Assembly: GCF_964204645.1 (NCBI RefSeq)
Contig: NC_134026.1
Span: forward strand, 14,666,150 to 14,730,149
Origin: Tubulanus polymorphus
Lineage: Eukaryota; Animalia; Nemertea
Direction: 5' to 3'
Length of the DNA stretch: 64,000 nucleotides
The position numbers and the translations under genes are program-made. Positions 18,473-64,000 of the stretch are shown one piece after another; the stretch's first letter is position 1; each line of letters begins with the position of its first letter. The notes beneath the pieces were generated by a model. That model worked only from the letters and a program-made list of their open reading frames with translations. It was not told the origin of the DNA and did no database searches.

Positions 18473-18480
18473 TCATACCC

Positions 18481-19498: not shown

Positions 19499-19507
19499 CT
19501 TATTTTA

Positions 19508-39003: not shown

Positions 39004-41790
39004 TAGATTTTGAGACACCAGAAAGTCAAATGAATTAAAAGAACGATTAAATGAAATGAAAAAAGACGAAATTAAATGTAATGTTTGTAATGAATTTATA
39101 AGTAAAATGAATTATGGTAGACATCTTAAGTCACAAAAACATAAACAAAGTTTAAGTAAAAACATTTTAGGAACAGAATATTTTGATGATAAACCTCAAC
39201 AAGTAAAAAAATCTTTTTAAAAAACTAAATATATTTTAAATAAATCTTATATGGAAAATGTTAAAAATCATATAGCATCACTAGACATAAAAGATACGAT
39301 TGAAATTTTAGAAACAATACATAGTAAAATTGGCCCTGCAGCTAAAATATTTAGATTTTTTCAAGGTACAACATTAGAAGATTATAGTTAAATTATTAAA
39401 ATAATGGAAAAAATAATGGATCCTGTAACAAATGATGATGTTGAATATCCGGATAATAGTAGTATCTCTGGAAAAGTAAGTTTTATAAAGGCAGAAGAAA
39501 AAATGGAGTACAACATTCAAACACACTCTGAAGAAATAATTTCAAAAATACAAATAAAATAGAACTTATACAAAAAGTAATCATCAAAAAGTAATAAAAT
39601 GCTTACAAATGATTTAAACTTTACAACAGAAAAGGATACCATTTACAACAAAAGCAGTTATAAATTTTTTAGATGATTTGAATGTTTTTTAAAATGTTTT
39701 CTATGGTCGATTATAAGTTGTCTACATCCAACAGAAGGACATGTTTATAGAATAACAGATTATCGGAAATATGAATCATTATATAAGATTGATCAATACC
39801 CAATAACTATAAAAATGATACCTAAAAAGTTTATAATTCAAAAATAAATGTATTCGAATTAATGCAACTACTAGAGACAAAAGGTGAAAATATTAAAGAT
39901 TATACATTAGAAGCTTTATATCTAACAAAACATTATGAAGATGATGAAAATGTTATAGATTTATTATACTATAAAAAAGATGAAGATGAACATTATATGT
40001 GGTTAAAACAAATAGATTTATTCTTTAGAACAGAAAGTGAAGATTTATTCTTTAGAACAGAAAGTGATTTTAACAACCATCATAAAATGTATCTATGTAG
40101 AAAATGTTTATCTAAATCTAAATGACAGAGAACGCATTATTAAAACATAAAGAGTTTTGCGATAATAAAGATTTTTTGTAAATTAATAAAAAAGATTTTT
40201 ATAAATTAATAATGCCAACGGAAAAAGATCGTAAGTTGAAACTTACTAATCATGAATTTAAAAATATTGAACCATTTGTAATATATGGAGATTTTGAATC
40301 GTTGAATAAATAATTAACTGATCAACATATCAACATCAGGTGAATTCACCTCTGTTCATTAGAAGCGAAACTCGTGCGTCAAATAATTAGTTTACCTATA
40401 CAGTACTACTCGTCTCACTACTTATTTTAAATCTGGTTAACACGGCTACTCTACGAATATTGTTCATTATAGAATGTTAAAATTTTACTAGAGAACCATT
40501 ATTTCTTTTTTTAGAGAACCATATCTAAAACAGATTTTGAAAAAGACTTTTTTAAGTTAATGAATAATAGTTTTTATGGAAAAACTTGCGAGATTATTCG
40601 AAATAGAAATGATATTGAACTAGTAAATAATTCTGAACGATTGAGACACTTACAATCAAGTCCTAGACATCTAGGAAATAAAAGATTTGAATTATTTAAC
40701 AGCAATAAAATTAAAAAGAACGGCACTTTTATTTAAATATAAATATGAATATAACTGTTGGCCCAAGTATATGTTTTGGATTTGGTTTTAAACGTGAACA
40801 AGAAATGAAGTTTGATATCAACGATGTAATAACTCATATAAGAAATATTACATTTTATAATCACAACATTTGATTATGAAACAACAAAGATAAAGAAACT
40901 TACAATGTAGAAAAGATTGTTGATTTAATCAAAAAATAATAATTTAAGTATATGAAAATAAAACTAATGATATTATAAATGTTGAATTAATAATAACTAA
41001 GATAACTAAATATTTTGAAGCCGGTATTTTTTTTCTTAATAAATGATGGACCAGGAGTGGATAATAAATGGATCATATAATGGAGCATTAGTATCAGTTG
41101 GAACTGTCGGGTAAACGATGTTGTTAAAAAAGGTTTTAAGATAGGAAATATTAATGTTGATAGATTTGATATCAATGATGTTTTAGAATTAACATTAGCA
41201 GTTACTTTATCTAATCTAACGATTGATTATTCAGAAAAACAAAAACATATTCCTCCTATTGACACGTAATTTTTTTGTTAAATAAATGGCATCCGCAATT
41301 ATAACTATTATAGGATCAGCAATTGTTAACGCTTTAGCATTTACAGGTGGTGGATATTTATTTAAGCATATTGATAAAAATGGTTGATTAACCGAGCAAA
41401 GAGACATAATTTAGCTTTAGAAAAATAGAATAAAGCAGCAGAAAAATATAGAGAAACAAGACAAAATTATATGCATTATATTAATAAAGAATTATATAAT
41501 CAAAATATTTCACACCGTGATTTTCAATCAGTTGATAAAGCTATGAGTTTATATAATTCAGTAACGTGCAAACCGTGCAAAATTACATTCGTATAAACCC
41601 AAATTATCAGATTATTATACACCAAGTAAAGAACAACAACAATATGAAATAATTTGAATTTTAGGTGGAACAGTTGTTGAATTATTTGTTGCTTATAAAT
41701 TTATTAATTAATAATTGTGTTTTTTGAAAGTCATACTATTTTAAATGTTGAAATAATAATAAAAAAAATAAAAAAATATTTTGAAGATGG
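39004..41790 (+). pseudogene. Decayed Polinton segment: pPolB remnants plus downstream small genes (N-terminus at ~28790-28896, before the Zator)
   Basis: CNVC..HLKSQKH zinc finger, KCFLWSIISCLHP, PFVIYGDFES, FKLMNNSFYGKTCE; then MNITVGPSICFG (~40746) and MASAIITIIGSAIVNALAF (~41287), matching genes at 59.8-64 kb. Confidence 0.85.
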
Positions 41791-42849
41791 TAATTTTTTA
41801 GGCCAGCCGTAGGCTGAGCCTATTACTATACAAATGGAGCGAATTTAAATGACATGATTAAAGGCTGTTTGACTGTGCAACTGAGCATATATTCATACAA
41901 ATCATTCATTATGGCATTATCCATTATCCAACCCCTATGAAGCTGAATTTTGAAAGAGGGCCTCATTAAAATTCATATGAGCATTTTCGCAAAAATCTGA
42001 TCGCAAAAATATCGGTTTTAAAAAGCCAATCAGAAAGCAAAGACTCCTCTATGATTGGCTTAGCCGCAGCGATCATCAGGTGTTCACGTGAATCCGCGGT
42101 ATCGTCTACCGTTTTACTTCCTGGTTTTATTTTAAGATCCAATATTGTATTCCAATATCGATTTCTGTGAAATCTTTTGTTAATTTGGTTTTTTGGAGGA
42201 ATATTTTTATTTTCCCTACAGATAATATCATTGACAATTGTGCACAGTCCGGGAAAATAGCTTTTTCTCAAATCGGATGGATGACCTTGATATGCTAATT
42301 AGCCATGTGCTCAAATTGCAAATTCAATCTAAATTTGTTCTGCAAAAAATATCAAATCCAATTCGATTTTATTTTATTGAACAAGGTAAAACAGCAAATC
42401 CAATTCGATTTTGTTTTATTGAGCAAATTTCAGAAAATACAATTCTATTCCGTGTTTAAATAAATACGATCAAAGGAAAATATTTATCTGAGGTATTTGT
42501 TCCTGGTAGCTCCAGTTGCTGTCTGTGCTACTTATGAAAACACGATTGAATTGTGTAAATTATTAGCCTGGGATTGACTAGTCTATGAGCTGGGAGTGTA
42601 TTTGGACAAATCTAACCCACACAATGCATCATTTGCCATTTTATGAAAAGCTGACAGGCTGGCCATAGTGCCCCTTGAGGCTCTTGTTTTCTTAATAAAT
42701 GGTGGACCAGAAGTTTTTGATAAATGGATTATGTAATGGAGCATCATTAACAGTTAGTACCGTTGGGTATACAATGTTATGGAAGAAAGTAATTAAAATA
42801 GGAAATATTAATGTTGATAGCGTTGATATAAATGATATTTTGAAATTAA

Positions 42850-48396: not shown

Positions 48397-48802
48397 AGTA
48401 ATAGGGGTAATGGGCTTTCAGGCCAAAGGTCGAACGGTCGAGCCCATTAAAAAACAAAATATTAAAAGTAATTAAAAAACTATAATATATTTTCATAACC
48501 ACGTGTATTTTATATCAAAACTAAATATTTATTCTAAGATATCAATAATATAAAAAGCATATTGTATTAAATCAATTGGTCGCTCCGCTTCGCCACCGCT
48601 CCGCTCCGCGACCAATTGATTTAATTACAATACACAAATTCAAATAATCAAATATATTCAAATGATAATAATTATTCTATTATTCAACTGAAATGCACGC
48701 GGTTATGAAAATATATTATAGTTTTTTAATTACTTTTAATATATGTTATTAATGAACTCGATCATTAAACCTTTAGCTTGAAAGCCCATTACCCCTATTA
48801 CT
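48397..48802. repeat. ~405-bp foldback at the Polinton left end
   Basis: AGTAATAGGGGTAATGGGCTTTCA...CACGTGTATT is inverted at 48692-48802; inner hairpin ATTAAATCAATTGGTCGC...GCGACCAATTGATTTAAT. Confidence 0.85.
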
Positions 48803-49828
48803 CTTAAAATATTCATATATATATGAATAACATTTAAATCATTGAACTTCTAAAATCAATTTTAATAAAAAATATAGTATTAAAATGGAAGCAAATAAGT
48901 ACTACTGCCCAACATGTAATATCGATATAGATAAATCCCAAAAAGCAAGACACAATAAAACTAGAACACATTTAGAGAATAAATTGAAACTAGAATATTT
49001 ACAGTTATATTCAGAACAGTTAACAAAAGGAAAGAAATTTATTGAATTATGGAACACTGATCCAAATAATGAACAATACGTTGAGGATACGATGTTTATA
49101 CTAGAACATGATTCTATTTGAGACTATATACATTCAATGTACAGAGCTATAGAATAAATCTATAAATTCGCAGCTGTTACGGTTGTTACTATAACAACGA
49201 GACATTATGACACGTCATAATCAGAAACGTGTAGAACACTCTAGAACCGGAACTAGATGACGTGGCATAATCAACGACGTGTCATTCTAGAAATCGCCCC
49301 GGAAATGGATATACGCTGTAATATTGTGCTCAGGATATTCTATCTTTCGAAACGAAATAAGGAGTTTATAGTTTACAATTATAGATCTAAATGTAAGTAC
49401 TGTTTGTTGTAGTTATTAAGGTTATTAAATATGAAACCTTTAGATATATTTAAGTGTATTTAGTATATATTTTAGATAGCTAGAGTTACCGCTAATATCT
49501 TTTAGATTAGTAAAACACCATACGCATCAAGAAGTGATAGAGAAACTCAAGATACTCTTTCTGCCTGAGGAATCAACAGCAATGGATATCGAACCAATAG
49601 AAACTGGTGTAGAATCACCAAAAGATCGACGAAGAAACTATATAAGAATTTCAAAAACATTAAGACTCCAATGATTAAGTTTAACATTTGTTGATGTAGT
49701 TAAATATTTACCAGCAATTGAAAAAATGTTTGTAATTATAAATTGTATTTATAGAAATCAAATGATGTATTAGAAGAAATGACTGAACAACTTGTATAAT
49801 GTATTGTGTAAATCTGATTGATGAATTT

Positions 49829-50300
49829 TTATGTTCGGTCGTTTCTATTCAGAATGAATATATAATTATGATTAGCGCATGCGCATTAAGCAAAAGCGCT
49901 CATATAAGAGCGGTTTTGCCTAATGCGAACACGTTTTGATATTTTATGTCGGTTGTTTCTATTTACATAATTATATATTCATTATGTAAATATAATTATG
50001 ATTAACGCATGCGCATTGATCAAAAACGCTCCTATAAGAGCGGTTTTGCCTAGTGCACATGCGTTTGAATTTTCTATGTTCAGTTGTTTCTATTTCACAG
50101 AATGAATATATAATTATGATTAACGCATGCGCATTGATCAAAAACGCTCCTATAAGAGCGGTTTTGCTTAGTGCGAACACGTTTAGATATTTTATGTCGG
50201 TCGTTTCTATTTTACAGAATTTACAGAATGAATATATAATTATGATTAACGCATGCGCATTAAGCAAAAGCGCTCCTATAAGAGCGGTTTTGCCCAGTGG
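49829..50300. repeat. Four ~115-130-bp tandem repeats with internal palindromes
   Basis: Each unit has (A/G)CGCATGCGC and the hairpin CAAAA(G/A)CGCTC-(C/A)TATAA-GAGCGGTTTTG. Confidence 0.9.
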
Positions 50301-50432
50301 TATTATTTAGATATCAAGGAATCGAAACAACTTATCAAAAGCAGCGAGGAATGAAAAAGGATGACGTTGGTCGAAGAAATGGAAGAGGATTCTAAAATAT
50401 TAACCAATTTAGTAAAAAAATATGTATAATAA

Positions 50433-51098
50433 ATGGAACCAGAACAACCACAAACTATCAATATTACAAATAACACTGGCGTTATAAACATATATTACAA
50501 GAAGTGTTCTAAATGTGAATTAAATAAATCATTAACAGAATTTAGTAAGCCTAAGATTAGCAAAGATGGTTTTCAATATTGTTGTAAAACTTGTACTAAA
50601 CTATACACCAAACAATATCGAGAAGATAATATAAAACATTATAATTATTATATGACAAAATATATGAGAGAAAGATATCAAACAGATCTTAATTTTAGAT
50701 TGAAACAATGCTTAAGGACTAGATTAACACATATATTCAACAAAGAAACACATTCAGAAACATTAACTAATTTGTTGGGTTGTTCAGATGAATTTCTCAA
50801 ATCATGGATTATATTTCAATTCGATGATAAAATGAATATAGATAATTATGGGGATTATTACCACATTGATCACGTGTTACCAATATCTAAATTTAACATG
50901 AATGATGAATATAATAAAAAACTTATTTGGGGTTGGAAAAATTTAAGGCCTTTAGAAAAGAAAGAAAATCAAATCAAATCTAATAAACTAGATTTACAGT
51001 TATATTTAGAACAGTTAACAAAAGCAAAGAAATTTATTGATCAATGGAATAATAATCCAAATAATGAACAATATGTTGAATCTTTATTGAGTGGTTAA
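50433..51098 (+). CDS. HNH-like endonuclease with N-terminal Cys cluster (Polinton)
   Basis: CSKC...CKTC, YHIDHVLPIS...WKNLRPL...EN..K. Confidence 0.75.
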   Translation: MEPEQPQTINITNNTGVINIYYKKCSKCELNKSLTEFSKPKISKDGFQYCCKTCTKLYTKQYREDNIKHYNYYMTKYMRERYQTDLNFRLKQCLRTRLTHIFNKETHSETLTNLLGCSDEFLKSWIIFQFDDKMNIDNYGDYYHIDHVLPISKFNMNDEYNKKLIWGWKNLRPLEKKENQIKSNKLDLQLYLEQLTKAKKFIDQWNNNPNNEQYVESLLSG

Positions 51099-51323
51099 AG
51101 ATTAATATATCTCAAATAAAATATAATAAAAATTACATACCTTCAACTATCTATTATTTCTATTTTAATTTTTAATATTTTCTTTTCAAAAGAGAATACT
51201 TTATATCACAAATAAAAAATAATAAAAAAACAATAACTAATACTAGAATTCTTTAACTTTAACTAGCTAGTATCATTTGAAGAATACTTATAATACTATT
51301 CTTATTAAATTTCTCTAATATAA

Positions 51324-51929
51324 ATGTCTAAGAAATCGAATAAGAATAATGTTAAAGTTGAAAAAACTTTGGAAGATTTAAGTTTAACGGATGATAATGA
51401 TAATGTGGTAACTAAATGTGATAATAAAATTGATAGTAATATTGATTACGAGTACTATTTATATTGTAAGCATCATCTAGAACTATTGATTGCGAGTGGA
51501 AAAACTAAAGAGTTTATTGGTAAAACAATAACTTTTCAAGAATTAGATAATATGAATAAAGAAAAAGTAATCAAATATTTTAAGATTTATGAAGAAGCTC
51601 GATTAGCTAGAATAAATGATTCTATTTCAGATGGTATTATCAAATGTTATTCAAAATTATGTAACCAGTTAATACCAATTGATGATGAAAATAAATTATA
51701 TAATGATTTGAAAAATGACTATTTAGTTATGACTGAATTACAAAAATGGGTTGGTTATGCTTCATTTCAATTAGGATCGGTTATGACATTAATTTCTACT
51801 GGCGTCATAACATTTTCGAACATCAAACCTATGGAATATAAATCAGGTAAGAACGAAACAGATGTACTACAACAAAACGTCGAAACAGAAAATGAATCAG
51901 AACAAAAATTAACTAAAATAAATGAGTGA
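51324..51929 (+). CDS. Polinton hypothetical protein
   Basis: 201-aa ORF with TAAATG start; conserved in the copy at 22929-23471. Confidence 0.8.
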   Translation: MSKKSNKNNVKVEKTLEDLSLTDDNDNVVTKCDNKIDSNIDYEYYLYCKHHLELLIASGKTKEFIGKTITFQELDNMNKEKVIKYFKIYEEARLARINDSISDGIIKCYSKLCNQLIPIDDENKLYNDLKNDYLVMTELQKWVGYASFQLGSVMTLISTGVITFSNIKPMEYKSGKNETDVLQQNVETENESEQKLTKINE

Positions 51930-52296
51930 AGGAGTTAAGAAAAAGGCTAGATCCGAGAAACAAATTAAATGGGCAAGAGAATTAGGTAAAAGATCATCAG
52001 AATTTAAAAAAGCTAAGAAAAAGAAATTAACTGATATAAATGAATCACCTGATGATGCCGTACGGCACCCACACGGCGGTATTGATTCAAATAATAATCC
52101 ATCTAATTCTTCTAATAGTGGAAGTAATAATAAATTATATATTACAATTGGGTTAATCACAATTATTATATTATCCGGTGTAATATATAAATCAAAATTC
52201 AAATCCGATGATAAAGATGATTCTAATGATAATAAACCTATCATACCAGAAAATAAATCAAATGAAAATAAATCTAAAATATTATTAATGGATTAA
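51922..52296 (+). CDS. Polinton small basic protein with one predicted TM helix
   Basis: 124 aa; hydrophobic LYITIGLITIIILSGVIY; conserved in decayed copy. Confidence 0.75.
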   Translation: MSEGVKKKARSEKQIKWARELGKRSSEFKKAKKKKLTDINESPDDAVRHPHGGIDSNNNPSNSSNSGSNNKLYITIGLITIIILSGVIYKSKFKSDDKDDSNDNKPIIPENKSNENKSKILLMD

Positions 52297-52299
52297 AAT

Positions 52300-53415
52300 A
52301 TGATGAAAAAAGAACAATATTTAAGAGAGTTATATTATAACCCAGAAAGTGAAGTATCATATTCTAACGTTTCAGAATTATGGAATAAAATTAAATCTGA
52401 TAATAGCAATGGTGCCGTACGGCACCCACACGGTGATATAAAATATAATGAATTAAAATCATGGTTACAAAATCAACCAACATATCAAATTCATAAAAAG
52501 ATGGATAAAAAATATTTAACAAGAAAAGTTATGGTTTCATATATCGATCAGCAATGGCAAGCTGATTTAATTGACATGAAAAACTTAGAAGAATATAACA
52601 AAGGATATTTTTGGATACTAAATGTTATAGATATATTCAGTAGATACGCATGGAGTATCCCGATTAAAAATAAAACTGGTATAGAAGTTACAAATTCTTT
52701 CAAATTAATATTTAAAGAAGCTATCCCAGATAAAATACAATTTGATGAAGGTAAAGAATTTTACAACAAACATTTTAAAAAACTATTAACTGATAACGAT
52801 GTAGAATATTTTTCAACACATTCAGATAAAAAAGCATCTGTTATAGAAAGATTTAATAAAACATTGAAAACTAGAATGTGGAAATATTTCACCGCTAATG
52901 AAACATATAAATATATCGATGTGTTAGATGATTTAGTTAAAGGTTATAATAATTCTAAACATAGTTCTATAAATATGAAACCTATACAAGCTAGAAAAGA
53001 AGAAAATTCAGAAATAGTTTGGAATAATTTATATGGAGCATTTGTTACACATGATTTTGGAGAACCTAAATTTAAAATAGGACAACATGTTAGAATTTCT
53101 AAATATAGAAAAACATTTTATAAAGGTTATACCCCTAATTTTACAGAAGAAATATTCAAGATTAAAAAGATAATATTAACTAAACCTTTTGTTTATAAAT
53201 TGTTTGATTTAAAAGATGAAGAAATATTAGGTTATTTTTATGAACAAGAATTATCATTAGTACCAAATCCAGATGAAATAGAATACAAAATAGAAAAAGT
53301 ATTGAAAACAAAAACTCTTAAAGGAAAAAAGTATTCTTTGGTGAAATATAAAGGATATGATGATAAATTTAATGAATGGATTTTATCTAGTAAAATTAAA
53401 AGAATAAATGAATAA
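52300..53415 (+). CDS. Retroviral-like (rve) integrase with C-terminal chromodomain
   Basis: WQADLIDM (D), IQFDEGKEF (D), SVIERFNKTLK (E); YKIEKVL...YSLVKYKGYDDKFNEWI chromodomain. Confidence 0.95.
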   Translation: MMKKEQYLRELYYNPESEVSYSNVSELWNKIKSDNSNGAVRHPHGDIKYNELKSWLQNQPTYQIHKKMDKKYLTRKVMVSYIDQQWQADLIDMKNLEEYNKGYFWILNVIDIFSRYAWSIPIKNKTGIEVTNSFKLIFKEAIPDKIQFDEGKEFYNKHFKKLLTDNDVEYFSTHSDKKASVIERFNKTLKTRMWKYFTANETYKYIDVLDDLVKGYNNSKHSSINMKPIQARKEENSEIVWNNLYGAFVTHDFGEPKFKIGQHVRISKYRKTFYKGYTPNFTEEIFKIKKIILTKPFVYKLFDLKDEEILGYFYEQELSLVPNPDEIEYKIEKVLKTKTLKGKKYSLVKYKGYDDKFNEWILSSKIKRINE

Positions 53416-54022
53416 AGATTTATTTATATTTGAACCACATAATATGTTAGTTACTGGAGTTACAAATTGTGGTAAAACACACTTCATATTAGATTTGTTA
53501 GAAACTATTTATAAAAATCATTTTGATAATATAATATTATTCTGCCCAACTTATGAAATGAATGAAACGTATAATAGAGATATAGTTTTTAAAGATAAAA
53601 AGTTTATTATATTAAATTCTAAAACAGTGAAAGATAATTTAGATAATTGTATAAAAATTGCATTAGATATTTATAAAGGATCTAATACATTATTTATTAT
53701 TGATGATTGCGCAAATTTACATGATTCTAAAATTAGAGAAAGTGAGTTATGTTATTTAGCTTTCTCTGGTAGACATTTTGGGATAACAACATGGGTTTTA
53801 AATCAGAAATATAATTCAATTGTGAAAGATTTTAGAGAGAATATAAGATTTCTAGTTTTATTCTACAACAAAGATAGAAAATCTATGCAACAATCATTGG
53901 AAGAAAATCAAATTATACCTACTGAATTACATGATGAATATATGAATAAATTAAAAAATAATAAAGGTTCCAAATTACTTATGAGATTACAATTTCCATA
54001 TGAATATAAATTTATAAAATAA
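53408..54022 (+). CDS. A32/FtsK-like genome packaging ATPase
   Basis: Walker A GVTNCGKT, Walker B FIIDD, SGRH arginine motif, NQKY. Confidence 0.9.
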   Translation: MNKDLFIFEPHNMLVTGVTNCGKTHFILDLLETIYKNHFDNIILFCPTYEMNETYNRDIVFKDKKFIILNSKTVKDNLDNCIKIALDIYKGSNTLFIIDDCANLHDSKIRESELCYLAFSGRHFGITTWVLNQKYNSIVKDFRENIRFLVLFYNKDRKSMQQSLEENQIIPTELHDEYMNKLKNNKGSKLLMRLQFPYEYKFIK

Positions 54023-54039
54023 CTATTTGTATACCTATG

Positions 54040-54125
54040 TATTAGATACCCTAATACCTGATACCCTAATACCTAATACCCTAATACCTGATACCCTAAT
54101 ACCTGATACCCTATTAGATACCTTA
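54040..54125. repeat. Short tandem repeat (ATACCCTAATACCTG-like) at the junction of convergent gene blocks
   Basis: Repeated ATACC(C)T(A/G) units read directly. Confidence 0.8.
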
Positions 54126-54181
54126 AATAATTTAAACCCCCTTTTTTATTTACTATTATTTTATACAATTTTCAACCTTTA

Positions 54182-55147
54182 TTATTCGAGTTTTAGATAA
54201 TCAATTTCTGAATCACTTTCACTATCAGACGGCTCTAACAACATATTTAAATGCTCTACCGAATCTACATCAACATCTTTATAATTTTTTTTCACCTTTT
54301 TCACCTTTTTCACCTTTTTCATATTTTTTACTAAATCATCAATAGTTGTTTCATTTTTAAACTTATTCTTCCAATCAAATTTATTATTATTTTCTACTTT
54401 AAGTTTTATAGAATCTTTATTATCAATATGTTTAACTGTAACTATATCATCATGTGGGTGTATGGCACCATTTTCATTATCATCTTTATTAGTGTTTGAT
54501 CCTAATATTTCATTTACAGTGTTTGATCCTAATATTTCATTAGCATCGGTTAAATCTAATTCATCTTTATTAGGTGTTGCTAATAAAAAATCTTCATATA
54601 ATTCTTTACCATTTACTTTTTTATTTGAAACAAACTTTGTAACATATCTAAATGGGTGTTCTATAAATTCTCTTAAACCAACACGTTCTATAACATTAGT
54701 AATATGTGAATTTGTATTCATATGTTTATTCCAATTTGATGGAGCGTTTGAAAATTCACCATTACAATAATCACAATAATTTCTATTTTCACTAACATTT
54801 AATATTATTGCATTATTATATGTAGAAGGTATTATATTATTTGATGTAGAGGGTATTACAGATGTAGAAGGTATTATGTTATTAGATGTAGAAGGTATTA
54901 CGTTATTAGATGTAGAAGGTATCACATTATTAGATGTAGAAGGTATTACATTATTATCAATTACATTACTTAAATTATCAACAACACCACTTTTATTATT
55001 ATCGATTTCTATCAGTTTAGTTTTATAATTTTTAAAAATAGGATCAAATATCAAAGCTATATTACAAGGTATTACATAATATAAACCATCATTATTTTCA
55101 TGTGTATCGATGTATGGAATATGTTTATATACTTTACCTCCTTCCAT
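54182..55147 (-). CDS. Polinton hypothetical protein with C2H2-like zinc finger and low-complexity repeats
   Basis: CDYC...HMNTNSH; ~6x NNVIPSTS, 2x NEILGSNT, KKV repeats, acidic tail. Confidence 0.7.
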   Translation of the reverse strand: MEGGKVYKHIPYIDTHENNDGLYYVIPCNIALIFDPIFKNYKTKLIEIDNNKSGVVDNLSNVIDNNVIPSTSNNVIPSTSNNVIPSTSNNIIPSTSVIPSTSNNIIPSTYNNAIILNVSENRNYCDYCNGEFSNAPSNWNKHMNTNSHITNVIERVGLREFIEHPFRYVTKFVSNKKVNGKELYEDFLLATPNKDELDLTDANEILGSNTVNEILGSNTNKDDNENGAIHPHDDIVTVKHIDNKDSIKLKVENNNKFDWKNKFKNETTIDDLVKNMKKVKKVKKVKKNYKDVDVDSVEHLNMLLEPSDSESDSEIDYLKLE

Positions 55148-55179
55148 TTATTATATATATTTTTATTAAAGTTAAAATT

Positions 55180-56427
55180 CTAATACATAACACTATCTAA
55201 TTGTGAATTTATAATATCTAATTGTGCGTCAGATATAATATAAATGTGCATTTTAAAATTTTTGATTCCCTTTTTCTTTGTCATGAATAATTGTATTCCA
55301 TCTTTTGTATTTTGTAATTTTTTCCCAGAACCATGTAATGAATTATCTTCAGTTGTTCTAAAATCTAACCATAATGCATATTTATTACCGGTATAATAAT
55401 CAATTTGATTAATATTACAATTTTCAGATGATTTTACTTTTTCATTCATAAAATGTTTTCTAATTTCTGGCCATTGATTTATCATTCTCATTCCTTGACA
55501 AAATATTTTATTTGCTATTCCTTCGATAGTTATTTCTACTTTTGTTATTTCAGGATTATAATAATTATCAACATTTATTGCGCCATTAGTATACGTTCCA
55601 ATGGTAAAAAATATTAATATACCTTTAATAGATCTTCTAGGGAAGTTAATATTCTCGTTAATTATTTCATCATTTGCATTAATAGTTACAGTTTTAAATT
55701 TATCAATATAATCATATAATAATGAAAATCCTTGATTGTATTTAGTTTGAATTATACTTGAAATATTTTCATCAGTTACTGTATCATATTCTAAACATAT
55801 ATTCGATAATTTATAACTCATATCTTTATTAACACTAGATATTACAATTTCATTTACAGGAGCAAATGTTATCTCAAATATAATATCTTCTTGAATTGCG
55901 TATTTATATAAAGGTGCATTATTATTTATCAATTCAAAGTCTAATGGAATTTTATATTTGCTTCCATATATACTTTTTATTAATTTATCTACATCATTAG
56001 TTAATATTGCGCTATTAGCTTCTGATCTTAATTTATTTTGGTTTTCTGATTGGATGCCTTGAAATATCATATTATTTCTATTTTCTTTAGTTAACCATAA
56101 ATCTTTATAATGCATAAATAAATTATAATCATCTAATGAGAAAACTGTTTCTGGACCAATCTTTATTGTTAACTTTTTAATCAAATATCTTCCAACATTA
56201 TCAACAACATAATTATTATTATTACCGATTACTTTTATATCAGCGGATAAATAAATACTATTTGGAACATAAAAAGTATTTTGTGTTAATCGAGGGATTC
56301 TAACGTATAAAGTTTCATCGGGATTAATATTTGAAGGGTTATGAGTAATTATATGATGTGATCTTTCTGCTTTAATAGCATTAGATATTCTATGATTCTT
56401 CGAAGGATTGATATAACTCCCACTCAT
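55180..56427 (-). CDS. Major capsid protein (double jelly-roll, hexon-like), putative
   Basis: 415 aa, beta-strand rich; NPSNINPDETLYVRIP, L.NICLEYD, YYNPEITKVEITIEG, YALWLDFRT..HGSG pattern typical of Polinton MCPs; context. Confidence 0.8.
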   Translation of the reverse strand: MSGSYINPSKNHRISNAIKAERSHHIITHNPSNINPDETLYVRIPRLTQNTFYVPNSIYLSADIKVIGNNNNYVVDNVGRYLIKKLTIKIGPETVFSLDDYNLFMHYKDLWLTKENRNNMIFQGIQSENQNKLRSEANSAILTNDVDKLIKSIYGSKYKIPLDFELINNNAPLYKYAIQEDIIFEITFAPVNEIVISSVNKDMSYKLSNICLEYDTVTDENISSIIQTKYNQGFSLLYDYIDKFKTVTINANDEIINENINFPRRSIKGILIFFTIGTYTNGAINVDNYYNPEITKVEITIEGIANKIFCQGMRMINQWPEIRKHFMNEKVKSSENCNINQIDYYTGNKYALWLDFRTTEDNSLHGSGKKLQNTKDGIQLFMTKKKGIKNFKMHIYIISDAQLDIINSQLDSVMY

Positions 56428-56447
56428 TTATTTAACAAAAAAATTAA

Positions 56448-57899
56448 TTATTTATTTTTTATCATGTTTACTAACCCAAAAATAATAGCACTTACAACTG
56501 TAATTAAAAATAAAATAATATGTTCAGCAGCAAAGTTAATAATGTTTCCTGCAGATTTCAATATAAAACCAACAATTGAAGCAATAACTCCTGGCAATGC
56601 TGCAGCAGATTTCTTTGATAGTTCCCATAAATATTTTGCTAATTTCTTTAAACCATCTTTAACTTTATCTTGTATAGAATTATTGCCTGGAGGTTTATCT
56701 GGTTTATTGGGAGTAGGAGTAGATTTCAAAGCATTTGATATAGCTAAACCAATTGTTGTAAATAACATAGTTACAGCTGTTACAATTGAAAGAATTGTTA
56801 TTCCTTCTAACTTAAATAATAACTTTATTCTGTCTTTTAATGATATTTCAGAATTTGGTTTAATCAACAAATCTTTAAAAATAACTTTTAATCTATTTAT
56901 ATTATAATCATATGATTTTGATAATAATTTAATTTCTTCTTTTTGTAATTCTATGTTATATTCTAAATCATCTATTTCTTTTTCTAAATATGCATTTCTT
57001 TTTTTAAATTCAATTTCTTCAATAACTTTATTATCTCTATCTAATTTTAGTTGTTCTATTTTTTTATTTTTATCAATTAATTCTTTTTCTAAAGTTCTAA
57101 TTTTAAAATCTCTTATACTTTTATCATGTGCAATTTTATCAGATGCAAGTCTTATACTAATAATTTCTCTAATTGCTTTGTCAGAAAATATATCTAAATC
57201 TTCTAATTCTTGATCTGTTGCATCAAGTAACCCATTCGGTAAAAGTTTTTCAATTGGAACTTTATTTGATTTAAGTTTACTAGTTTTGGAAGTTTTATTC
57301 TGTTCAGAAGTTGTTTCTGTTTCTAAATTATTATCGATTATTTCAAATAATTCATTAATTCTTTGTTTGAATTCTTTTCTATTATTATCTCTTTCTTCTT
57401 GTGTAACATCAGTTATTTCATTTCTAATACTTATTCTCTTAATTCTATCTGGTTCTAACTTAAGCAAAGTTGATTCTGCTAATATTATATTTTGAGTTTT
57501 ATAAGAGATGTCAATATAATAATCATCTTTCAATTTATTATAATATTCACCATCTAAATATTTTAAATCTTGTACTAAATGTCTGGCGCCTCTGTAATTT
57601 ATATTATATCCAGATTTTTTAAATACATCTTGAAACTTATAAATATATTCAATATTTTCTAAATTTTGTCTTGATAAACCTTGATTTTCATTTTCAGGAT
57701 TTATTCTCGATCTAGTTCTTCTATCAAATTCATCTGTTGATGGGGCTTTAGAACCACTATCTGCTAAATTAGAATTATATGCTGATTCATCATCATTATC
57801 AATATTAGCGTCTGCATCATTATAATCATCATCAATATATCCTTCATTATTATTTCCCATGTCATCCAATGGAATATCTTCTCCACCTTCTACATCCAT
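56448..57899 (-). CDS. Polinton coiled-coil protein with C-terminal amphipathic/TM helices (candidate membrane-active virion protein)
   Basis: 483 aa; acidic N-terminus, coiled coil, EGITILSIVTAV, AALPGVIASIVGFILK, terminal TM. Confidence 0.75.
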   Translation of the reverse strand: MDVEGGEDIPLDDMGNNNEGYIDDDYNDADANIDNDDESAYNSNLADSGSKAPSTDEFDRRTRSRINPENENQGLSRQNLENIEYIYKFQDVFKKSGYNINYRGARHLVQDLKYLDGEYYNKLKDDYYIDISYKTQNIILAESTLLKLEPDRIKRISIRNEITDVTQEERDNNRKEFKQRINELFEIIDNNLETETTSEQNKTSKTSKLKSNKVPIEKLLPNGLLDATDQELEDLDIFSDKAIREIISIRLASDKIAHDKSIRDFKIRTLEKELIDKNKKIEQLKLDRDNKVIEEIEFKKRNAYLEKEIDDLEYNIELQKEEIKLLSKSYDYNINRLKVIFKDLLIKPNSEISLKDRIKLLFKLEGITILSIVTAVTMLFTTIGLAISNALKSTPTPNKPDKPPGNNSIQDKVKDGLKKLAKYLWELSKKSAAALPGVIASIVGFILKSAGNIINFAAEHIILFLITVVSAIIFGLVNMIKNK

Positions 57900-57915
57900 T
57901 TACATAATAAAAAAA

Positions 57916-59325
57916 TTAAAATTTAAAATATAATATTCCTCCGATTACAATTCCTATACAAGTTATAGCTAATTTAGTATTTTCATGGGATTTATTATCA
58001 TCATTTAGTTTAATTATATCATGTTGAATTTTATCAGTTCTATTATCACCGTGTGGGTGCCGTACGGCACCATTTTCTGATGTATTGTAATCTTTTATTT
58101 TAGAATCATTATTTAATTTAATATTCTTAGTTTTAGTTTCAGTTGATTGAATATGTTTTTTATTTTTTTCACCTTCCATTAATTTTCGAGCAGTAATAAT
58201 CTTTTTATTTATATCATTTAATCCAAATGAATTATTTATTGTTGCAGTTTTAATTAGATTATTATAACCAATTATGTTTCCCATCTTTAATACTAAATCA
58301 TTAGAAATAATTAATAGATTAGGGCCTATACAATAATTTAGTCTTACATGAGATTTATCTAAATAATTTTGATATCTTATAATGTTTTCTGGAATCGATC
58401 TATTTTTATCATTATGAATTGAATCTTCAAATAAAACTTTAAATTGTTTCTGTGTATCAAATGATGTATTCAAATTTCCAATTATCGGTGATCTTGTTTC
58501 AACTTGTGATCCTAGAATACAATTCAAATAAATTCAAATAGATTGATTTATTCTTTCTATACCTGATTTAGTAAAACCTTCACTATTTTCTAAAATAAAA
58601 TAAACCCAACCATTATTGTTTTCTTGTTTTAAATTATCATAAAATCTTGGTAATTTATTGAAATTTAATGTTTCTAAATCCTTTGTTTCTATTTTACCAT
58701 AACCTAATTTATTATTATAGATATTATAAAAACTATTAGATGGTATGGGAAGTGCACAATATTCTGCAATCTTTCTAGGGCATGGAAGTGATCTTATTGT
58801 TCCAATTTTTGTTCTAAAATCAGAATTATTTATATCTATATTAAATTCATTGCAAATTTTATAAAACTTAGATAAATTAATATTATTATCTAATTCTTTA
58901 AAATATCTAGATCCTGGTAAAGCACACTCTAATTCATTTAATATTATTCTGATTTGAAAGTATGTATGAAATCTAAATAAACTTTGAATTAGTTTATATT
59001 TAGAATTATTCAAATGATCATTCCAACTTATACCACATCCTGTTGTTGCACAATAAACAGCAAAATTTAATTGGTTCTGCCAATACTTCATATTAGATTT
59101 TAATAACCATTGTTTTTCATCTTTCAATTTTTTAAAATTAATTAAATATACATGAAATATATTTTCCATCTTTGCATTAAAATTATTAGTTTCAGTAACA
59201 TAAATTTCTAAATTAGTTAATGAATCTAAAACTTCATTTCTATATGTAATATCTTTATTAAAATCTATTGCTGGAATATTATATTTAATTGATTTATTGT
59301 ATTGGAAAGCTTTTGGAAACCCCAT
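57916..59325 (-). pseudogene. Single ~470-codon Polinton conserved gene interrupted by an in-frame TGA (track ORFs 58534-59325 + 57916-58527)
   Basis: The two ORFs are in the same frame: INQSI*IYLNCILG; the paralogous scrap at ~28515 has AGA (NQSIRLY); motif WQNQLNFAVYCATTGCGIS. Confidence 0.8.
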
Positions 59326-59353
59326 TTATATAACTAAAAAATTAATAATTAAC

Positions 59354-59776
59354 TTATTCTTTTAATAATTTATCTTGTTCTTCAACTGTTATATGACCAT
59401 TTAAACTTATGATATAATCTAGTGTGTTCTTTAATTTATTAATTTCTTTTATATTAGTTTTAATTTTTTCTTTATTACTTTTTATATTTAATTTTGAACT
59501 TATACCAGTTAAAACACTTGAACTTAATCCTAACACACCAATTGATATAGCTAAAGGTGTTAATGGACTGAATATTGCTAGAAATGTTATTACAGAACTA
59601 ATTGTAACCGAACCACTTATAATCAAATAATATATAATTTTACTTTTTAAATATTTTTTCTTTTTTATCTTTAAGTCACTTTCAAATTCTAATATTTGTT
59701 TTTCTAAATATGTTTTTAATTTAGTTTTATTTATATCATGAGGAATAATATCAATACTATCAACTTTATCTTCCAT
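59354..59776 (-). CDS. Polinton two-TM small protein
   Basis: 140 aa; two hydrophobic helices flanked by Lys-rich coiled segments; TAAATG start. Confidence 0.75.
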   Translation of the reverse strand: MEDKVDSIDIIPHDINKTKLKTYLEKQILEFESDLKIKKKKYLKSKIIYYLIISGSVTISSVITFLAIFSPLTPLAISIGVLGLSSSVLTGISSKLNIKSNKEKIKTNIKEINKLKNTLDYIISLNGHITVEEQDKLLKE

Positions 59777-59795
59777 TTATTTAGAATAAAAATTA

Positions 59796-60218
59796 CTAAT
59801 TAGTAAACTTATAAGCAACAAATATAACAATAACTGTTCCACCTAAAATCCATATTATTTCATATTTCTGTTGTTCTTTACTTGGGGTATAATAATCTGA
59901 TAATTTAGGTTTGTACAGATGTAATTTTTCTTTATTGGTTACTGCGTTATATAAACTCATTGCATCATCAACTGATTGAAAATCTCTGTGTGAAATCTTC
60001 TGATCATATAATTCTTTATTGATGTAATCCATATAGTTTTGTCTCTTTTCTCTATATTCTTCTGCAGCTTTATTGTATTTCTGTAACGCTAAGTTATGTC
60101 TTCTTTGTTCTCCTAATGAACTATTTTTATCAATATGTTTAAATAAATATCCACCACCAGTAAATGCTAAAGCGTTAACAATTGCTGATCCTATAATAGT
60201 TATAATTGCAGAAGCCAT
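59796..60218 (-). CDS. Polinton conserved small membrane-associated protein
   Basis: MASAIITIIGSAIVNALAFTGGGYLF...EQRRHNLALQK...PKLSDYYTPS + C-terminal TM; decayed homolog at 41287-41710. Confidence 0.8.
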   Translation of the reverse strand: MASAIITIIGSAIVNALAFTGGGYLFKHIDKNSSLGEQRRHNLALQKYNKAAEEYREKRQNYMDYINKELYDQKISHRDFQSVDDAMSLYNAVTNKEKLHLYKPKLSDYYTPSKEQQKYEIIWILGGTVIVIFVAYKFTN

Positions 60219-60229
60219 TTATTTAGCAA

Positions 60230-60462
60230 AAAATTATACATTTATATGGGAGGAATATATTTTTGTTTTTCCAAATAATCAATAGTTAAATTAGATAAAG
60301 TAACTGCTAATGTTAATTTCAAAATATCATTGATATCAAATCTATCAACATTAACACTTCCCATTTTGAATACTTTTTTAATACCATTGAAGAACCAACA
60401 GTTCCAACTGATAGTAATGCGCCATTATATAATCCAGTTATTATCCACTTATTATCACTCAT
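60230..60462 (-). pseudogene. Small Polinton gene missed by ORF track, frameshifted in an A-run
   Basis: TAAATG start MSDNKWIITGLYNGALLSVGTVG; continues VNVDRFDINDILKLTLAVTLSNLTIDY in another frame; homologs at ~41043-41270 and ~42700-42849. Confidence 0.7.
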
Positions 60463-60804
60463 TTATTTATCAACAAAATTACTATCATCAAAATATTTAG
60501 TTATCTTATTTGTGATTAATTCAACATTTATTTCATTACTAGTTTTATGATTATCATATATTTTGGATAATATGTTTTTAATATCATCAATAATTCCATC
60601 TTCATTTAATTCATAATATTCTAAAGGTGATTTAATTAAATCAATTACTTTTTCTATATTATACTTTTCTTTATCAATCATTGACGCATTGTTAAATGAT
60701 TTACTTTTTATATCAGTAATTACATCATTTAGTTTAATTCTCATTTCTTTACCATGTTTAAAATCAAACCCAAAACATATACTCGGTCCAACAGTTATAT
60801 TCAT
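60463..60804 (-). CDS. Polinton hypothetical protein
   Basis: 113 aa, TAAATG start; homolog remnant at ~40746. Confidence 0.7.
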   Translation of the reverse strand: MNITVGPSICFGFDFKHGKEMRIKLNDVITDIKSKSFNNASMIDKEKYNIEKVIDLIKSPLEYYELNEDGIIDDIKNILSKIYDNHKTSNEINVELITNKITKYFDDSNFVDK

Positions 60805-60821
60805 TTATATAGTGAAAAAAA

Positions 60822-61579
60822 TTACTCTCTACATCTTATAACTAATTCATAAATTACAGGGAAATTATTTAAATCAATTAAGTATCCATTATGATTTCTA
60901 ATTTCTAATCTAAAATTATTAAAACGAGGAATGCATGGTTTGAAATCACATTCTGTTAAATTATAATTTATTTGCGTTCCAAATTCTTTAACATTCTTCA
61001 ATGGTAAAATGTTTAGTAAACCAGAATTACAAGTTATATCTTTAGTTGCTTCGAATGTTTTTGTAGGATCGATTAAATTGCAATAAATATAGAAATGTGT
61101 AAAAGGCATTATATTTGGTGTAGCATCAGCATTGCGTATCCTTACATCTGGGGTTATTCCTAAAATTTTAGCTAAGGGTTTTTTAACTAGAAATTGATGT
61201 TGATCTTCATTACCTAATTTTATTCTTATTTTATCAGAACTATCACTTTTAATCAGTCTTAATCAAATCCAGCAGATGCACCCATTTTCAACCGAGCTCT
61301 TCTATTAATTTCCTGCGCTAATGTATCTAAATTATATAATCCTGGTTTAAGATAAAGATGAAACCATTTACTTTTATTTCTATCATGAATTAGAAAGACT
61401 CTATGTTCAATGGTTTTATCCGATACATTGTAAAAAGAATTACATAAACTTATATTAACTAATTTTAAATCAACACAATTCTTGAATTCTCTATCTAATT
61501 GTACTAGTAAATTATGAGATTTATAATTTGTAAGTCTTCTAGAATCAACAAATATTCTGTATTCTTTTAATTCCACCAT
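60822..61579 (-). pseudogene. Minor capsid (penton-like) protein, frameshifted at ~61260
   Basis: N-part YRIFVDS...LKPGLYNLDTL and C-part FYIYCNLID...LEIRNHNGYLIDLN; the intervening frame is open after a short TGATTAA duplication. Confidence 0.7.
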
Positions 61580-61596
61580 TTATTTTACATATTTTC

Positions 61597-61938
61597 TTAT
61601 TCGAAATCTATTTCATGGTGCCCTTTTTCATTCTTACCTTTGTATACGAAATAGAAATCTCCAGAACATAATTCTTCTAAATCTTCACTTGATAATCTAT
61701 GAAATCTATCCGGTAAATATGTTCTGAATTTATATGTATTTCCTTTTAATCCTTCATATTCTAAGTGTATAACTAATTTATCTCCATAGTTATTAGTAAC
61801 TGTATCAATATTTGTAATTAGATATTTCTTATGGATTGTTAATTCTGTTAGTTTTTTAAATTTATAATCTACAGATTTGACGCTTGAAGTATCTTTAATT
61901 CTATCTAAGAATTCACTGTGTACTTGTTTACTCTCCAT
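61597..61938 (-). CDS. Polinton small protein next to pPolB (possible OB-fold/SSB)
   Basis: 113 aa; KLTEL..KY.IT....T.YG...YLPDRF pattern; fold call is inference. Confidence 0.65.
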   Translation of the reverse strand: MESKQVHSEFLDRIKDTSSVKSVDYKFKKLTELTIHKKYLITNIDTVTNNYGDKLVIHLEYEGLKGNTYKFRTYLPDRFHRLSSEDLEELCSGDFYFVYKGKNEKGHHEIDFE

Positions 61939-61966
61939 TTATTATACAAATTTTTATTGAAATTGA

Positions 61967-64000
61967 TTAACACGCTAGAATCCTTTTCATAATCTCATTT
62001 TCTTTTGTTTCTTCTCTTTTGAATTTTATATATTCATCTAAATTGCAACCATACGCGACTGTGTGGATTCCATCATCTAAAATATATCTTTTATCATCAA
62101 ATGGGTTTAGACTTATCTTTTCAATTTCTTCAATATACATTTCATGATCTTCAGATCTTAAACATTTCATTTTATGTTTTCTAACTTCTTCATTAAATAT
62201 ACAATTGATGTAATCTTTAAAATGAATATTCTTTTCAACAACGCTTTTGGTTATTCCTTTTAACTTTTTAGCTTCATGTTCTTTAGTTTTATATGAATAC
62301 ATTTTAGATCTAATACCTATGAACTCTATCATTTCTTCACCACCTAATTCATCTTTAAACTTCCCGGGAACTTTTTTATTATCATTGCTAAACAATTCAT
62401 GATCTTTAGGATAGTTACTGAAATCAAAATGATGATTTAATATTTTTAAATCATCAGTTATGTTATCACTTTTTATCTTTAATATGTAAGAATCTGTATC
62501 TAGATATAAGATTTCTATATTTTTTTCCCCAAAATGGGGTTGCAATACATTATAATAGAATTCATACATCAATAGCTTTGATAACTCTAAAACTGCAGCT
62601 CCAACATAAATAGGTTTATTGAACTTCATAGAAGTTCTTTTTAATTTAACTGCTGCTAAATTTTCATCAAATATTCTATTACCTATGAATTTCGGATACG
62701 ATTGCAAATGTCTAATTCTTTTACCATTACTAACTAACTCAATATCATTTCTATTTCTTATGTTTTCACATGTTTTTCCATAGAACGCATTATTCATTAG
62801 TTTAAAGTAATCTTTTTCAAAATCAGTTTTAGCTTCAGTTCTCTGTGTAGTATTAAAATCTATATATTTTTCTAACCACTTAGATTGATTAAATGAAATA
62901 TATCTATGTACTTTTTTTAATATCATTCCTTGTCTCAAATAAAACTTCAACATTCTATAATGTACTACATAATTATATTTATCTTCTTGAGTTACCATTA
63001 ACTTTTCAGTATGAATATGATTATCGGGTTTAATTCTTTTTTGATAATTTGATAATTCTTCATGTTTAACAGTTTTATGTTCGGGACAATATTCTAGATT
63101 TCTAGATTTGAATTTAATATTTTCAGGGTATTCTAAGTCTACAACGAAGAAGTAACCAATATCTGAATCATCTGCAATATCTAGGATTCTTTTCTTCCAA
63201 TCAAATTTATCAATTTGTAAAACTTCAGTTATTTCAAACATCCCATAAGGTTGTGGTTCCATCATTGCCCAACCATAAAGATTATTTGCATCTATGTATA
63301 ATAATTTATATCCAGGATTATCATTTACATTGAAATATCTATCACCTAATACACCTGAAACACCTCCTCTTATAGATTTTTCAAATAATAGTAATTGATC
63401 TATATTTGTTAACAAATCCATTTTTATATCTGTAAATTTTAAACCACAATCCCAAGTTAATCCTGGGCTAGAATAACAATGACAAGGATCAATATTGAAA
63501 TATTTTAGGTTTACATCTCTAAACCTTTCGAATATATCGGTTAATAATAATACATCTGATTTTAAATATAAATCTACTAATTGTCCATGATTTTTAATTT
63601 CAAAATGATTCCAAATATTCAATGTTCTATTATATACTTCATCTTTAACATATTCATTTTTTAATTCATCATAGAATTGTTCTTTCAATAATTCAGTTAT
63701 TTTAAAATCATTATGATTTTTATAGAAAGAATATGGAATTGCGCCTTTATATCTCATTAATTTAAAATCATCATAATTTGGGTAATATTCTTTTAATATC
63801 TTTAATTCATCATCAACTAATGATTTTGATAAGTTATCTAATGAACTATTTAAAAATCTATATGAATCTATAAATCTTAGACAACCAAATTGGAATGATA
63901 TATAATTCTCAGATGTTTTAGCTAACATTCTAAATTTATAAGTTGGTATTTTATCTTTTGATCTATTTGAATTTAATATTTCTATTTCATTATTGATTTC
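61967..64000 (-). CDS. Protein-primed family B DNA polymerase (5' part beyond window)
   Basis: FIDSYRFL, YLKSDVLLL (ExoIII), YIDANNLYGWAM (A), KLMNNAFYGK (B), YLDTDS (C); frame stays open from 63928 to the window edge. Confidence 0.95.
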   Translation of the reverse strand, partial: EINNEIEILNSNRSKDKIPTYKFRMLAKTSENYISFQFGCLRFIDSYRFLNSSLDNLSKSLVDDELKILKEYYPNYDDFKLMRYKGAIPYSFYKNHNDFKITELLKEQFYDELKNEYVKDEVYNRTLNIWNHFEIKNHGQLVDLYLKSDVLLLTDIFERFRDVNLKYFNIDPCHCYSSPGLTWDCGLKFTDIKMDLLTNIDQLLLFEKSIRGGVSGVLGDRYFNVNDNPGYKLLYIDANNLYGWAMMEPQPYGMFEITEVLQIDKFDWKKRILDIADDSDIGYFFVVDLEYPENIKFKSRNLEYCPEHKTVKHEELSNYQKRIKPDNHIHTEKLMVTQEDKYNYVVHYRMLKFYLRQGMILKKVHRYISFNQSKWLEKYIDFNTTQRTEAKTDFEKDYFKLMNNAFYGKTCENIRNRNDIELVSNGKRIRHLQSYPKFIGNRIFDENLAAVKLKRTSMKFNKPIYVGAAVLELSKLLMYEFYYNVLQPHFGEKNIEILYLDTDSYILKIKSDNITDDLKILNHHFDFSNYPKDHELFSNDNKKVPGKFKDELGGEEMIEFIGIRSKMYSYKTKEHEAKKLKGITKSVVEKNIHFKDYINCIFNEEVRKHKMKCLRSEDHEMYIEEIEKISLNPFDDKRYILDDGIHTVAYGCNLDEYIKFKREETKENEIMKRILAC

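Follow-up and report, generated by a model that had tools for sequence, protein, structure and literature searches.

In a 64,000-nucleotide stretch of the nemertean Tubulanus polymorphus (contig NC_134026.1 of RefSeq assembly GCF_964204645.1, positions 14,666,150 to 14,730,149 of the forward strand; hereafter the window), a multicopy Polinton carries the sequence TAAATG over the start codon of nearly all its genes. Judged from the sequence comparisons reported here, this signal is a real, conserved and lineage-wide promoter of one branch of animal Polintons. The best reading that we can offer is that it serves a pox-type RNA polymerase of an unsampled viral lineage, the main rival being a helper of the iridovirus type. 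Dependence on the polymerase of a helper appears likely; the narrower proposal, namely that the signal would be a post-replicative promoter of the poxvirus type and that a pox-like virus infecting the same cell would supply the RNA polymerase, has in our estimation about an even chance of being right.

Results

TAAATG at the gene starts of the element

The first-pass annotation of the window had listed 14 ATGs overlapped by TAAATG (at 50433, 51324, 51922 and 53408 on the plus strand and at 55147, 56427, 57899, 59325, 59776, 60218, 60462, 60804, 61579 and 61938 on the minus strand), and all of them are confirmed in the sequence. The triplet TAA precedes 14 of the 15 real start codons, against 28 of the 530 other ATGs of the element (Fisher P 4e-16), and with the local upstream TAA frequency of 0.083 the binomial probability of such a count is 1e-14. 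Taken across the window as a whole, TAAATG shows no enrichment (97 occurrences for 99 expected), the excess being confined to gene starts; the annotation had made its reading hang on an enrichment over an AT-matched background, and that enrichment is present. The integrase gene, which had been singled out as the exception, starts with TAAAAT-ATG, a near-variant of the motif, and its orthologues start with TAAATG (locus L001), TAAATA-ATG (L004) or TAAAAT-ATG (L003). Two open reading frame (ORF) starts that are devoid of the motif, 58284 and 61109, are internal ATGs of broken genes, as seen from homology to the intact genes of locus L009.

Confinement of the motif to one Polinton branch

The comparison set was made of 80 of the 117 metagenome loci encoding a related capsid. 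In a quick capsid tree of 76 rows the window groups with 16 loci (support of 92 in the SH-like approximate likelihood ratio test, SH-aLRT), and this group is the branch referred to throughout; capsid fragments shorter than 330 amino acids, such as those of L012 and L057, were kept off the tree and placed by their 49-58% identity. Among the ORFs that have a homologue, TAA precedes the ATG in 66 of 79 inside the branch and in 5 of 359 outside it, and the orthologue-matched figures for nine shared gene families are 46/59 and 3/298. Of the 13 misses inside the branch, six fall on internal ATGs in genes that are broken or cut, five have TAAAT or TAAAAT at a distance of one to four bases upstream, one has TAAATG four bases upstream, and a single one is a true miss. 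The annotation had asked for a comparison with other metazoan Polintons, and its outcome is that TAAATG is not generic among them: even the related AT-rich loci outside the branch have it at 0 of 12 starts.

Could the motif be a mere by-product of AT-rich DNA and tight packing, the stop codon of one gene abutting the start of the next? The element has 24% GC, and at 60462 as well as at one start of L009 the TAA does abut the upstream stop. GC content nevertheless fails to explain the motif, because the branch loci of 36-44% GC keep it at 9 of 11 starts and the AT-rich outgroup is without it, the latter being a small control of five loci below 35% GC and 12 starts, 11 of which have a purine at -3. 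Stop-start coupling fails as well, because the triplet before the ATG in the branch is TAA 66 times, TGA once and TAG never, when the stop codons used are TAA 55, TGA 11 and TAG 9 times, because the TAA of the start is the upstream stop in 1 of the 62 branch starts with a neighbour, plus 60462, and because TAAATG is found on both strands in seven pairs of divergent genes, whose start codons are separated in six cases by only 19-30 nucleotides. Together with a background of 5-8% and the fixed upstream T described below, these observations refute the by-product explanation, whose chance we put close to nil. Outside the branch, A or G stands at -3 in 238 of the 359 starts, which is the scanning context; the T found at -3 in the branch is contrary to it.

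Profile scans for the capsid and pPolB gave no match in viral contigs and one outgroup-like locus in genome contigs, and a lookup in a protein-cluster atlas returned only generic capsid clusters. Capsids of the branch (cluster P0046) turn up in several assemblies labelled Bartonella sp., probably by contamination from the host, which hints at the presence of the branch in terrestrial arthropods. Among the loci compared, L009, a branch member, encodes under a TAAATG start a deoxynucleoside kinase (dNK; 10343-10981, Pfam 1.7e-31) for which the search gave no nearest named source. The outgroup locus L024 carries a superfamily-1-type helicase (AAA_30/AAA_19; 9970-13596) in the place of its relatives' pPolB, and the sister-lineage locus L017 encodes a VLTF3-like protein (5082-5576) with a Pfam E of 3.6e-5, just under the cut-off. 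In L016 and L017, TATA stands shortly before the ATG in 9 of 11 starts, a pattern reminiscent of the asfarvirus late initiator.

Two-part architecture of the signal

The signal is longer than first described. Over the 69 distinct starts of the branch, with positions counted from the T of TAAAT, it is composed of an A-tract, a near-invariant T at -9 and then WAWA-TAAATG: positions -15 to -13 are A-rich, positions -12 to -9 are T-rich and almost devoid of G or C, and A is found at -3 and -1. The frequency of T reaches 0.74 at -10 and 0.93 at -9 (64 of 69 starts, against 33 of 112 TAAATG that are not starts), and the T at -9 is present in all four sub-branches (39/41, 8/9, 11/13 and 6/6), the capsids of which are about 50% identical to each other. 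Of the 13 occurrences of WWW-T-N7-A-TAAATG in the element, 12 coincide with starts; the capsid gene offers a full example (56425..56445, minus strand), with a T-tract, the T at -9 at position 56439, a spacer and TAAATG at 56430-56425. A division of the genes into late (T-tract) and intermediate (A-tract) classes looked suggestive in the window, was inconsistent across the sub-branches and was dropped.

Comparison with the promoters of large DNA viruses

The reference sets were drawn from natural viral sequence flanking the gene of the large RNA polymerase, which was located with a polymerase motif: 36 chordopoxvirus loci (three of them named), seven entomopoxvirus-like loci (L323 named, the others assigned by polymerase similarity) and 85 irido-like loci chosen by an irido-type polymerase motif, with names confirmed for three isolates. 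The core matrix of the branch (-16 to -5) was scored against position-shuffled sequence per gene family, the irido-like test being limited to loci with at least 25% TAAATG starts; family-level tests were used in place of pooled-promoter z-scores, which are inflated by relatedness. The upstream core separates the poxviruses from the irido-like viruses and fits poxvirus post-replicative promoters best: it gains 2.3 bits over shuffled sequence in the chordopoxvirus families (15/21, P 0.005), 1.3 bits in the entomopoxvirus-like ones (26/37, P 0.009) and 0.5 bits in the irido-like ones (68/116, P 0.12), with a P of 0.02 for the difference between pox and irido. The correlations of the whole matrix with that of the branch are 0.57, 0.41 and 0.40, respectively. 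The chordopoxvirus loci have TAAATG at about half of their starts, with an A-rich stretch upstream and a peak of T at -10/-9 (0.69/0.59); an upstream T peak and an A-rich stretch are also what the available parts of published poxvirus promoter descriptions report (PMC11980589, PMC5294985).

TAAATG alone does not name the helper, because the irido-like loci carry it at 249 of 1052 ORF starts, with a maximum of 64% in a single locus; a set of 120 other AT-rich large-virus loci has it at 69 of 636 starts. The pox-like RNA polymerase invoked by the annotation thus retains the enrichment, the confinement to a branch and the fit of the upstream core, and loses the hexamer as a pox-specific mark. Invertebrate iridoviruses and their uncultured relatives (L246, L268, L286 and others) have ATAAATG at a third to half of their starts; TAAATG is counted at 7/17 starts in Wiseana iridescent virus, 7/16 in invertebrate iridescent virus (IIV) 30 and 14/22 in L286, at 2/14 in IIV-6, and at 0-1 of 15-16 in three ascovirus-like loci. 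In the portions of the reviews at hand, AAAAT is the motif named for iridoviruses, and TAAAT is given only for ranavirus polymerase promoters (PMC5294985, PMC5923455).

The abundance of TAAATG in these viruses weighs against a pox-type helper, and so do several other observations. The A just before TAAAT is as frequent in the branch (0.84) as in the irido-like set (0.87), and less so in the chordopoxvirus (0.42) and entomopoxvirus-like (0.60) sets. The T peak of the branch lies one base closer and is much sharper than that of the chordopoxviruses (0.93 vs 0.59 at -9), the entomopoxvirus-like loci have no such peak (0.47/0.40 at -9/-10), and none of the reference sets has a T at -9 as sharp as the branch. 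Gene sharing with large viruses was tested on what flanks the polymerase gene. A set of 393 pox ORFs, taken at 12 loci in the conserved centre of pox genomes, matched nothing in the window or in any of the 16 branch loci, and Pfam detects no pox polymerase subunit or VLTF there. Nor did a helper virus or a transcript of the element come to light, no screen of a host genome or of RNA reads having been made. Homologues in irido-like loci exist for the HNH-like gene at 50433 (E 4e-23 to the irido-like locus L248), for the dNK of L009 and for one conserved family gene, in a comparison where only the conserved centre of pox genomes was represented. The pox early terminator TTTTTNT was considered and rejected as a sign of pox transcription: it is depleted in the branch (0.42), but TTTTTN[ACG] (0.59) and A5 (0.79) are too, which amounts to a general avoidance of homopolymers, whereas the pattern in pox genes without TAAATG is specific to TTTTTNT (0.43 vs 0.97). 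The small size of the AT-rich outgroup controls, for the motif above and for AATAAA below, counts on the same side.

An iridovirus, or a related virus of the Pimascovirales, with late genes at ATAAATG could then be the helper of an element with the same virophage-like life style. The frequency of the hexamer, the agreement at -1 and the irido-like homologues all point in its direction, as do reports of iridovirus-like particles in a marine worm and in a nautilus (PMC5923455). Furthermore, the irido-like loci pooled here are diverse, and a fitting lineage may be masked among them: L238, L245, L275 and L293 have T at -9 in 5 of 5 starts, those of the same five genes. The core remains the discriminating feature: the irido-like starts have no upstream T peak (0.39 at -9), the core matrix is unmatched at the family level, and an irido core matrix scores best for 8 of the 69 branch promoters. 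We hold an irido-type helper to be unlikely.

Internal AATAAA and explanations that need no helper

The occurrence of AATAAA on coding strands was compared with the expectation from shuffled synonymous codons. The branch has 216 for 218 expected (3.8 per kb), pox late genes 140 for 146 and iridovirus isolates 93 for 98; the hexamer is depleted in the AT-rich outgroup, a small set of 18 genes (19 for 31, z -3.1; 21 for 14 on the antisense strand), and weakly so in the GC-rich outgroup (28 for 34). Unpurged internal AATAAA fits a cytoplasmic transcription. It argues against the nuclear explanation, according to which the motif would either be read by host RNA polymerase II with a factor encoded by the element or the host, yielding near-leaderless mRNAs, or be a translation signal, and no helper would be needed. 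This explanation draws on the tens of integrated copies, which imply that the element reaches the nucleus and the germ line, on the zinc-finger protein that the branch has of its own (gene at 55147), and on the coral polintoviruses that, in the part of the study at hand, are reported to be expressed with no known helper (10.1101/2023.10.06.561300). It would have to accommodate not only the AATAAA, undepleted in contrast to the AT-rich outgroup, but also the T at -3 and the 19-30 nucleotides between divergent start codons, and the likeness to pox promoters would become a coincidence. We regard it as quite unlikely.

A pox-derived RNA polymerase could also be encoded in the unseen part of the element or come from a sister element in the cytoplasm. 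The parallel is with the linear virus-like elements of yeasts, which replicate by means of pPolB and possess a polymerase of this kind, along with a TAAAN initiator and poly(A) leaders, according to the part of the work available (PMC6211774). The right end of our element lies beyond the window, and the VLTF3-like factor of L017 belongs to a sister lineage. Neither a polymerase subunit nor VLTF3 is found in the 15.6 kb of the window copy or in the 16 branch loci, however, no RNA polymerase or capping enzyme of the yeast type is found in these 15.6 kb, the near-complete relatives of 13-14 kb leave little room for one, and the yeast upstream element, ATNTGA, differs from the branch motif. This origin of the polymerase seems very unlikely to us.

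Anatomy and copy number of the element

The left end of the element (48397..48801) is an imperfect palindrome of about 400 bp, 75% identical, which begins with AGTA and has a GC-rich hairpin at its centre; the end was fixed by the loose ends of raw DNA reads that bear the same species label. The 1249 reads that break off before 48397 agree with each other at 0.35, that is to say they come from many flanks. In the region covered by the mapping for copy number (46000-54200), the read depth rises from 6-10 on the unique flank to mostly 200-700 over the element genes, which corresponds to tens of copies that share at least 90% identity. The element leaves the window inside its polymerase gene, with the right end and the start of pPolB beyond, and the visible 15.6 kb contain a Polinton gene set consisting of pPolB, RVE integrase, A32-type ATPase and double-jelly-roll major capsid protein.

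On the plus strand, a 78-amino-acid ORF (48885..49121, starting with TAAAATG) combines a zinc finger with a duplicate of the HNH-like gene's 3' end, and is followed by four units of an internally palindromic repeat, each about 120 bp long (49850..50338). Then come the HNH-like endonuclease (50433..51098), which is present only in the TAAATG branch (cluster 11, 6/6 members) and whose L001 orthologue has a weak Pfam HNH match; a conserved family gene of unknown function (51324..51929, cluster 2); a small predicted membrane protein (51922..52296), the TAAATG of which lies inside the upstream gene; the RVE integrase with a chromodomain (52300..53415; Pfam rve 7e-9, above the cut-off, and Chromo 9e-5); and the A32-type packaging ATPase (53408..54022; Pox_A32 2e-12). 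A 31-nucleotide GC-rich repeat is found in frame in three genes (at 52051, 52408 and 58044), the integrase among them, and encodes the same short peptide; the protein starting at 55147 contains a resembling one.

The minus strand carries the zinc-finger-like protein confined to the branch (54182..55147; cluster 14 and alignment), whose TAAATG is accompanied by an A-tract, and the double-jelly-roll major capsid protein (55180..56427), the model of which (predicted local distance difference test, pLDDT, 84.7) has Foldseek matches to the capsids of Paramecium bursaria chlorella virus 1 (PBCV-1), an iridovirus and mavirus (E 1e-15 to 1e-11). Further on lie a coiled-coil protein with C-terminal hydrophobic segments (56448..57899, cluster 4); a conserved gene split into two ORFs, 59325-58534 and 58284-57916, which both fall in cluster 5 and form a single ORF of 442 amino acids in L009 (57916..59325); a protein with two transmembrane segments and a weak SLATT-like match (59354..59776); a small conserved membrane protein (59796..60218, cluster 3); another small conserved membrane-protein gene, frameshifted here and a 75-amino-acid ORF in L009 (60242..60462); and a 113-amino-acid ORF of unknown function (60463..60804). 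The conserved gene that starts at 61579 is split into two ORFs (60822..61579, cluster 7) and possibly encodes a minor capsid protein, in view of a weak match to PBCV-1 P1v1 (E 0.37). It is preceded by the gene of a small protein resembling an oligonucleotide-binding (OB) fold (61597..61938), whose low-confidence model has its best Z, 5.7, to baculovirus LEF-3 and matches other OB folds, and by pPolB (61967..64000), 42% identical over 639 amino acids to the polymerase of L032, itself a match to DNA_pol_B_2. Judged against the intact ORFs of L009, three genes of the window copy (those starting at 59325, 60462 and 61579) are broken, and this copy is defective. No adenain-type protease was recognized by Pfam among the ORFs of the window, where the right end is cut off, or the scanned ORFs of L009, L023, L024 and L032.

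Decayed copies and surrounding DNA

Four decayed fragments of the element lie elsewhere in the window. One (17860..19878, minus strand, 85% identical) contains the gene of 51922, the integrase and the ATPase; another (22971..24604, minus strand), the HNH-like gene and that of 51324, with the promoters at 24572 and 23471 kept; a third (39000..42849, plus strand), pPolB remnants and small genes, with promoters kept at 41043, 41286 and 42699. The survival of the motif in decayed copies, as noted in the first-pass annotation, holds for 23471, 24572, 41043 and 41286 (given there as 41287), which retain both TAAATG and the upstream T; at 19873 the TAAATG is kept and the DNA upstream of it is a host repeat, and at the decayed ATPase start near 18.4 kb the motif is lost. 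A fragment of Orai, the calcium release-activated calcium (CRAC) channel (27754-28667, Pfam 3e-35), directly adjoins a Polinton fragment. Host repeats, namely 31-bp tandem arrays and a cluster of palindromic 50-70-bp repeats, occupy 2400-8570 and 16835-17200, and remnants of hAT transposases occur at 37.7 and 44.5 kb; these remnants and the Orai fragment mark the host as an animal.

Discussion

The model that we favour combines an integrated element with the late transcription machinery of a pox-like virus, by analogy with vaccinia and mavirus. The integrated copies would stay silent until infection, as is described for the endogenous mavirus, which shares the late promoter of its helper, in the part of the report available (10.1101/068312). 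Upon infection, the late machinery of the helper would initiate on the AAA of TAAAT, and its polymerase, by slippage, would give the mRNA a 5' poly(A) leader in which an A takes the place of the unfavourable T at -3; initiation within TAAAT and slippage into poly(A) leaders are documented for the vaccinia polymerase in the sections consulted (PMC6211774, PMC7163114). The element would then replicate with its own pPolB, package its DNA with its own ATPase and capsid, and reintegrate. Any protection of the host would be a further, purely hypothetical step beyond this helper-driven cycle.

A helper-type promoter common to a whole branch gives a direct handle on the transcription of animal Polintons and on their possible virophage behaviour. 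It predicts silence in healthy tissue, transcripts led by poly(A) upon infection, and the existence of a still unknown virus, pox-type (or irido-type), in the host animal; the mavirus model of inherited, virus-triggered elements would then extend from protists to animals. We tentatively put forward a wider picture, which we think somewhat more apt to fail than to hold: a deep and widespread branch of animal Polintons would have become obligate satellites of poxvirus-type viruses by rewiring all their genes to the helper's late promoter, the endogenous copies would bear witness to pox-like viruses of marine invertebrates that await discovery and would also constitute an antiviral reserve, both inherited and inducible, and the start motifs of sister lineages, such as the TATA found with the VLTF3-like gene in L017, would be switches to other helpers. 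If so, start motifs would be a way to read the identity of the helper from sequence. We found no description of TAAATG or pox-type promoters in Polintons in the literature covered, which leaves out most subscription papers.

Several known systems share parts of this organization; the papers cited are compared as far as their text was available. Like Mavericks/Polintons (Polintoviricetes, adintoviruses), the element has pPolB, RVE integrase, A32 ATPase, double-jelly-roll capsid, multicopy integration and an end beginning with AG; unlike them, it has no detected cysteine protease in the window copy and near-complete relatives, and other branches of the same capsid family use starts with A/G at -3. 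The vaccinia intermediate and late promoters have TAAAT(G) over the start codon, a T-rich core about 10 nucleotides upstream and an A-rich stretch beyond (PMC11980589, PMC5294985); the branch differs by its nearly invariant T peak at -9, its strong A at -1 and -3, the presence of the signal at almost all genes and the lack of a visible early class. The yeast plasmids pGKL1/2 are likewise AT-rich, tightly packed pPolB replicons with a TAAAN initiator, but they possess their own RNA polymerase and capping enzyme and an early-type upstream element, and neither capsid nor integrase (PMC6211774).

The Polinton-like viruses (PLVs) associated with entomopoxviruses (Barth et al. 2024, PMC11296320) are small and have been proposed as hyperparasites of poxviruses in invertebrates. 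Their presence in occlusion bodies is a precedent for the model and a physical evidence that sets them apart from our element, as do their protease and lack of an RVE integrase; the words promoter, motif and TAAAT are absent from the available text on them. Mavirus and the endogenous mavirus-like virophages of Cafeteria (10.1101/068312) resemble the element as integrating entities endowed with pPolB, RVE integrase, capsid and ATPase, and with a promoter resembling the late promoter of a large virus. They differ by their protist host, their known helper, Cafeteria roenbergensis virus (CroV), their virophage capsid and protease and their different motif, where the Polinton has an animal host and a pox-type motif; the capsids of mavirus and Sputnik, with an identity of about 10%, do not match that of the element better than do the capsids of nucleocytoplasmic large DNA viruses (NCLDVs). 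Silence until infection is shown for mavirus, and in the nemertean Polinton it would follow the same principle.

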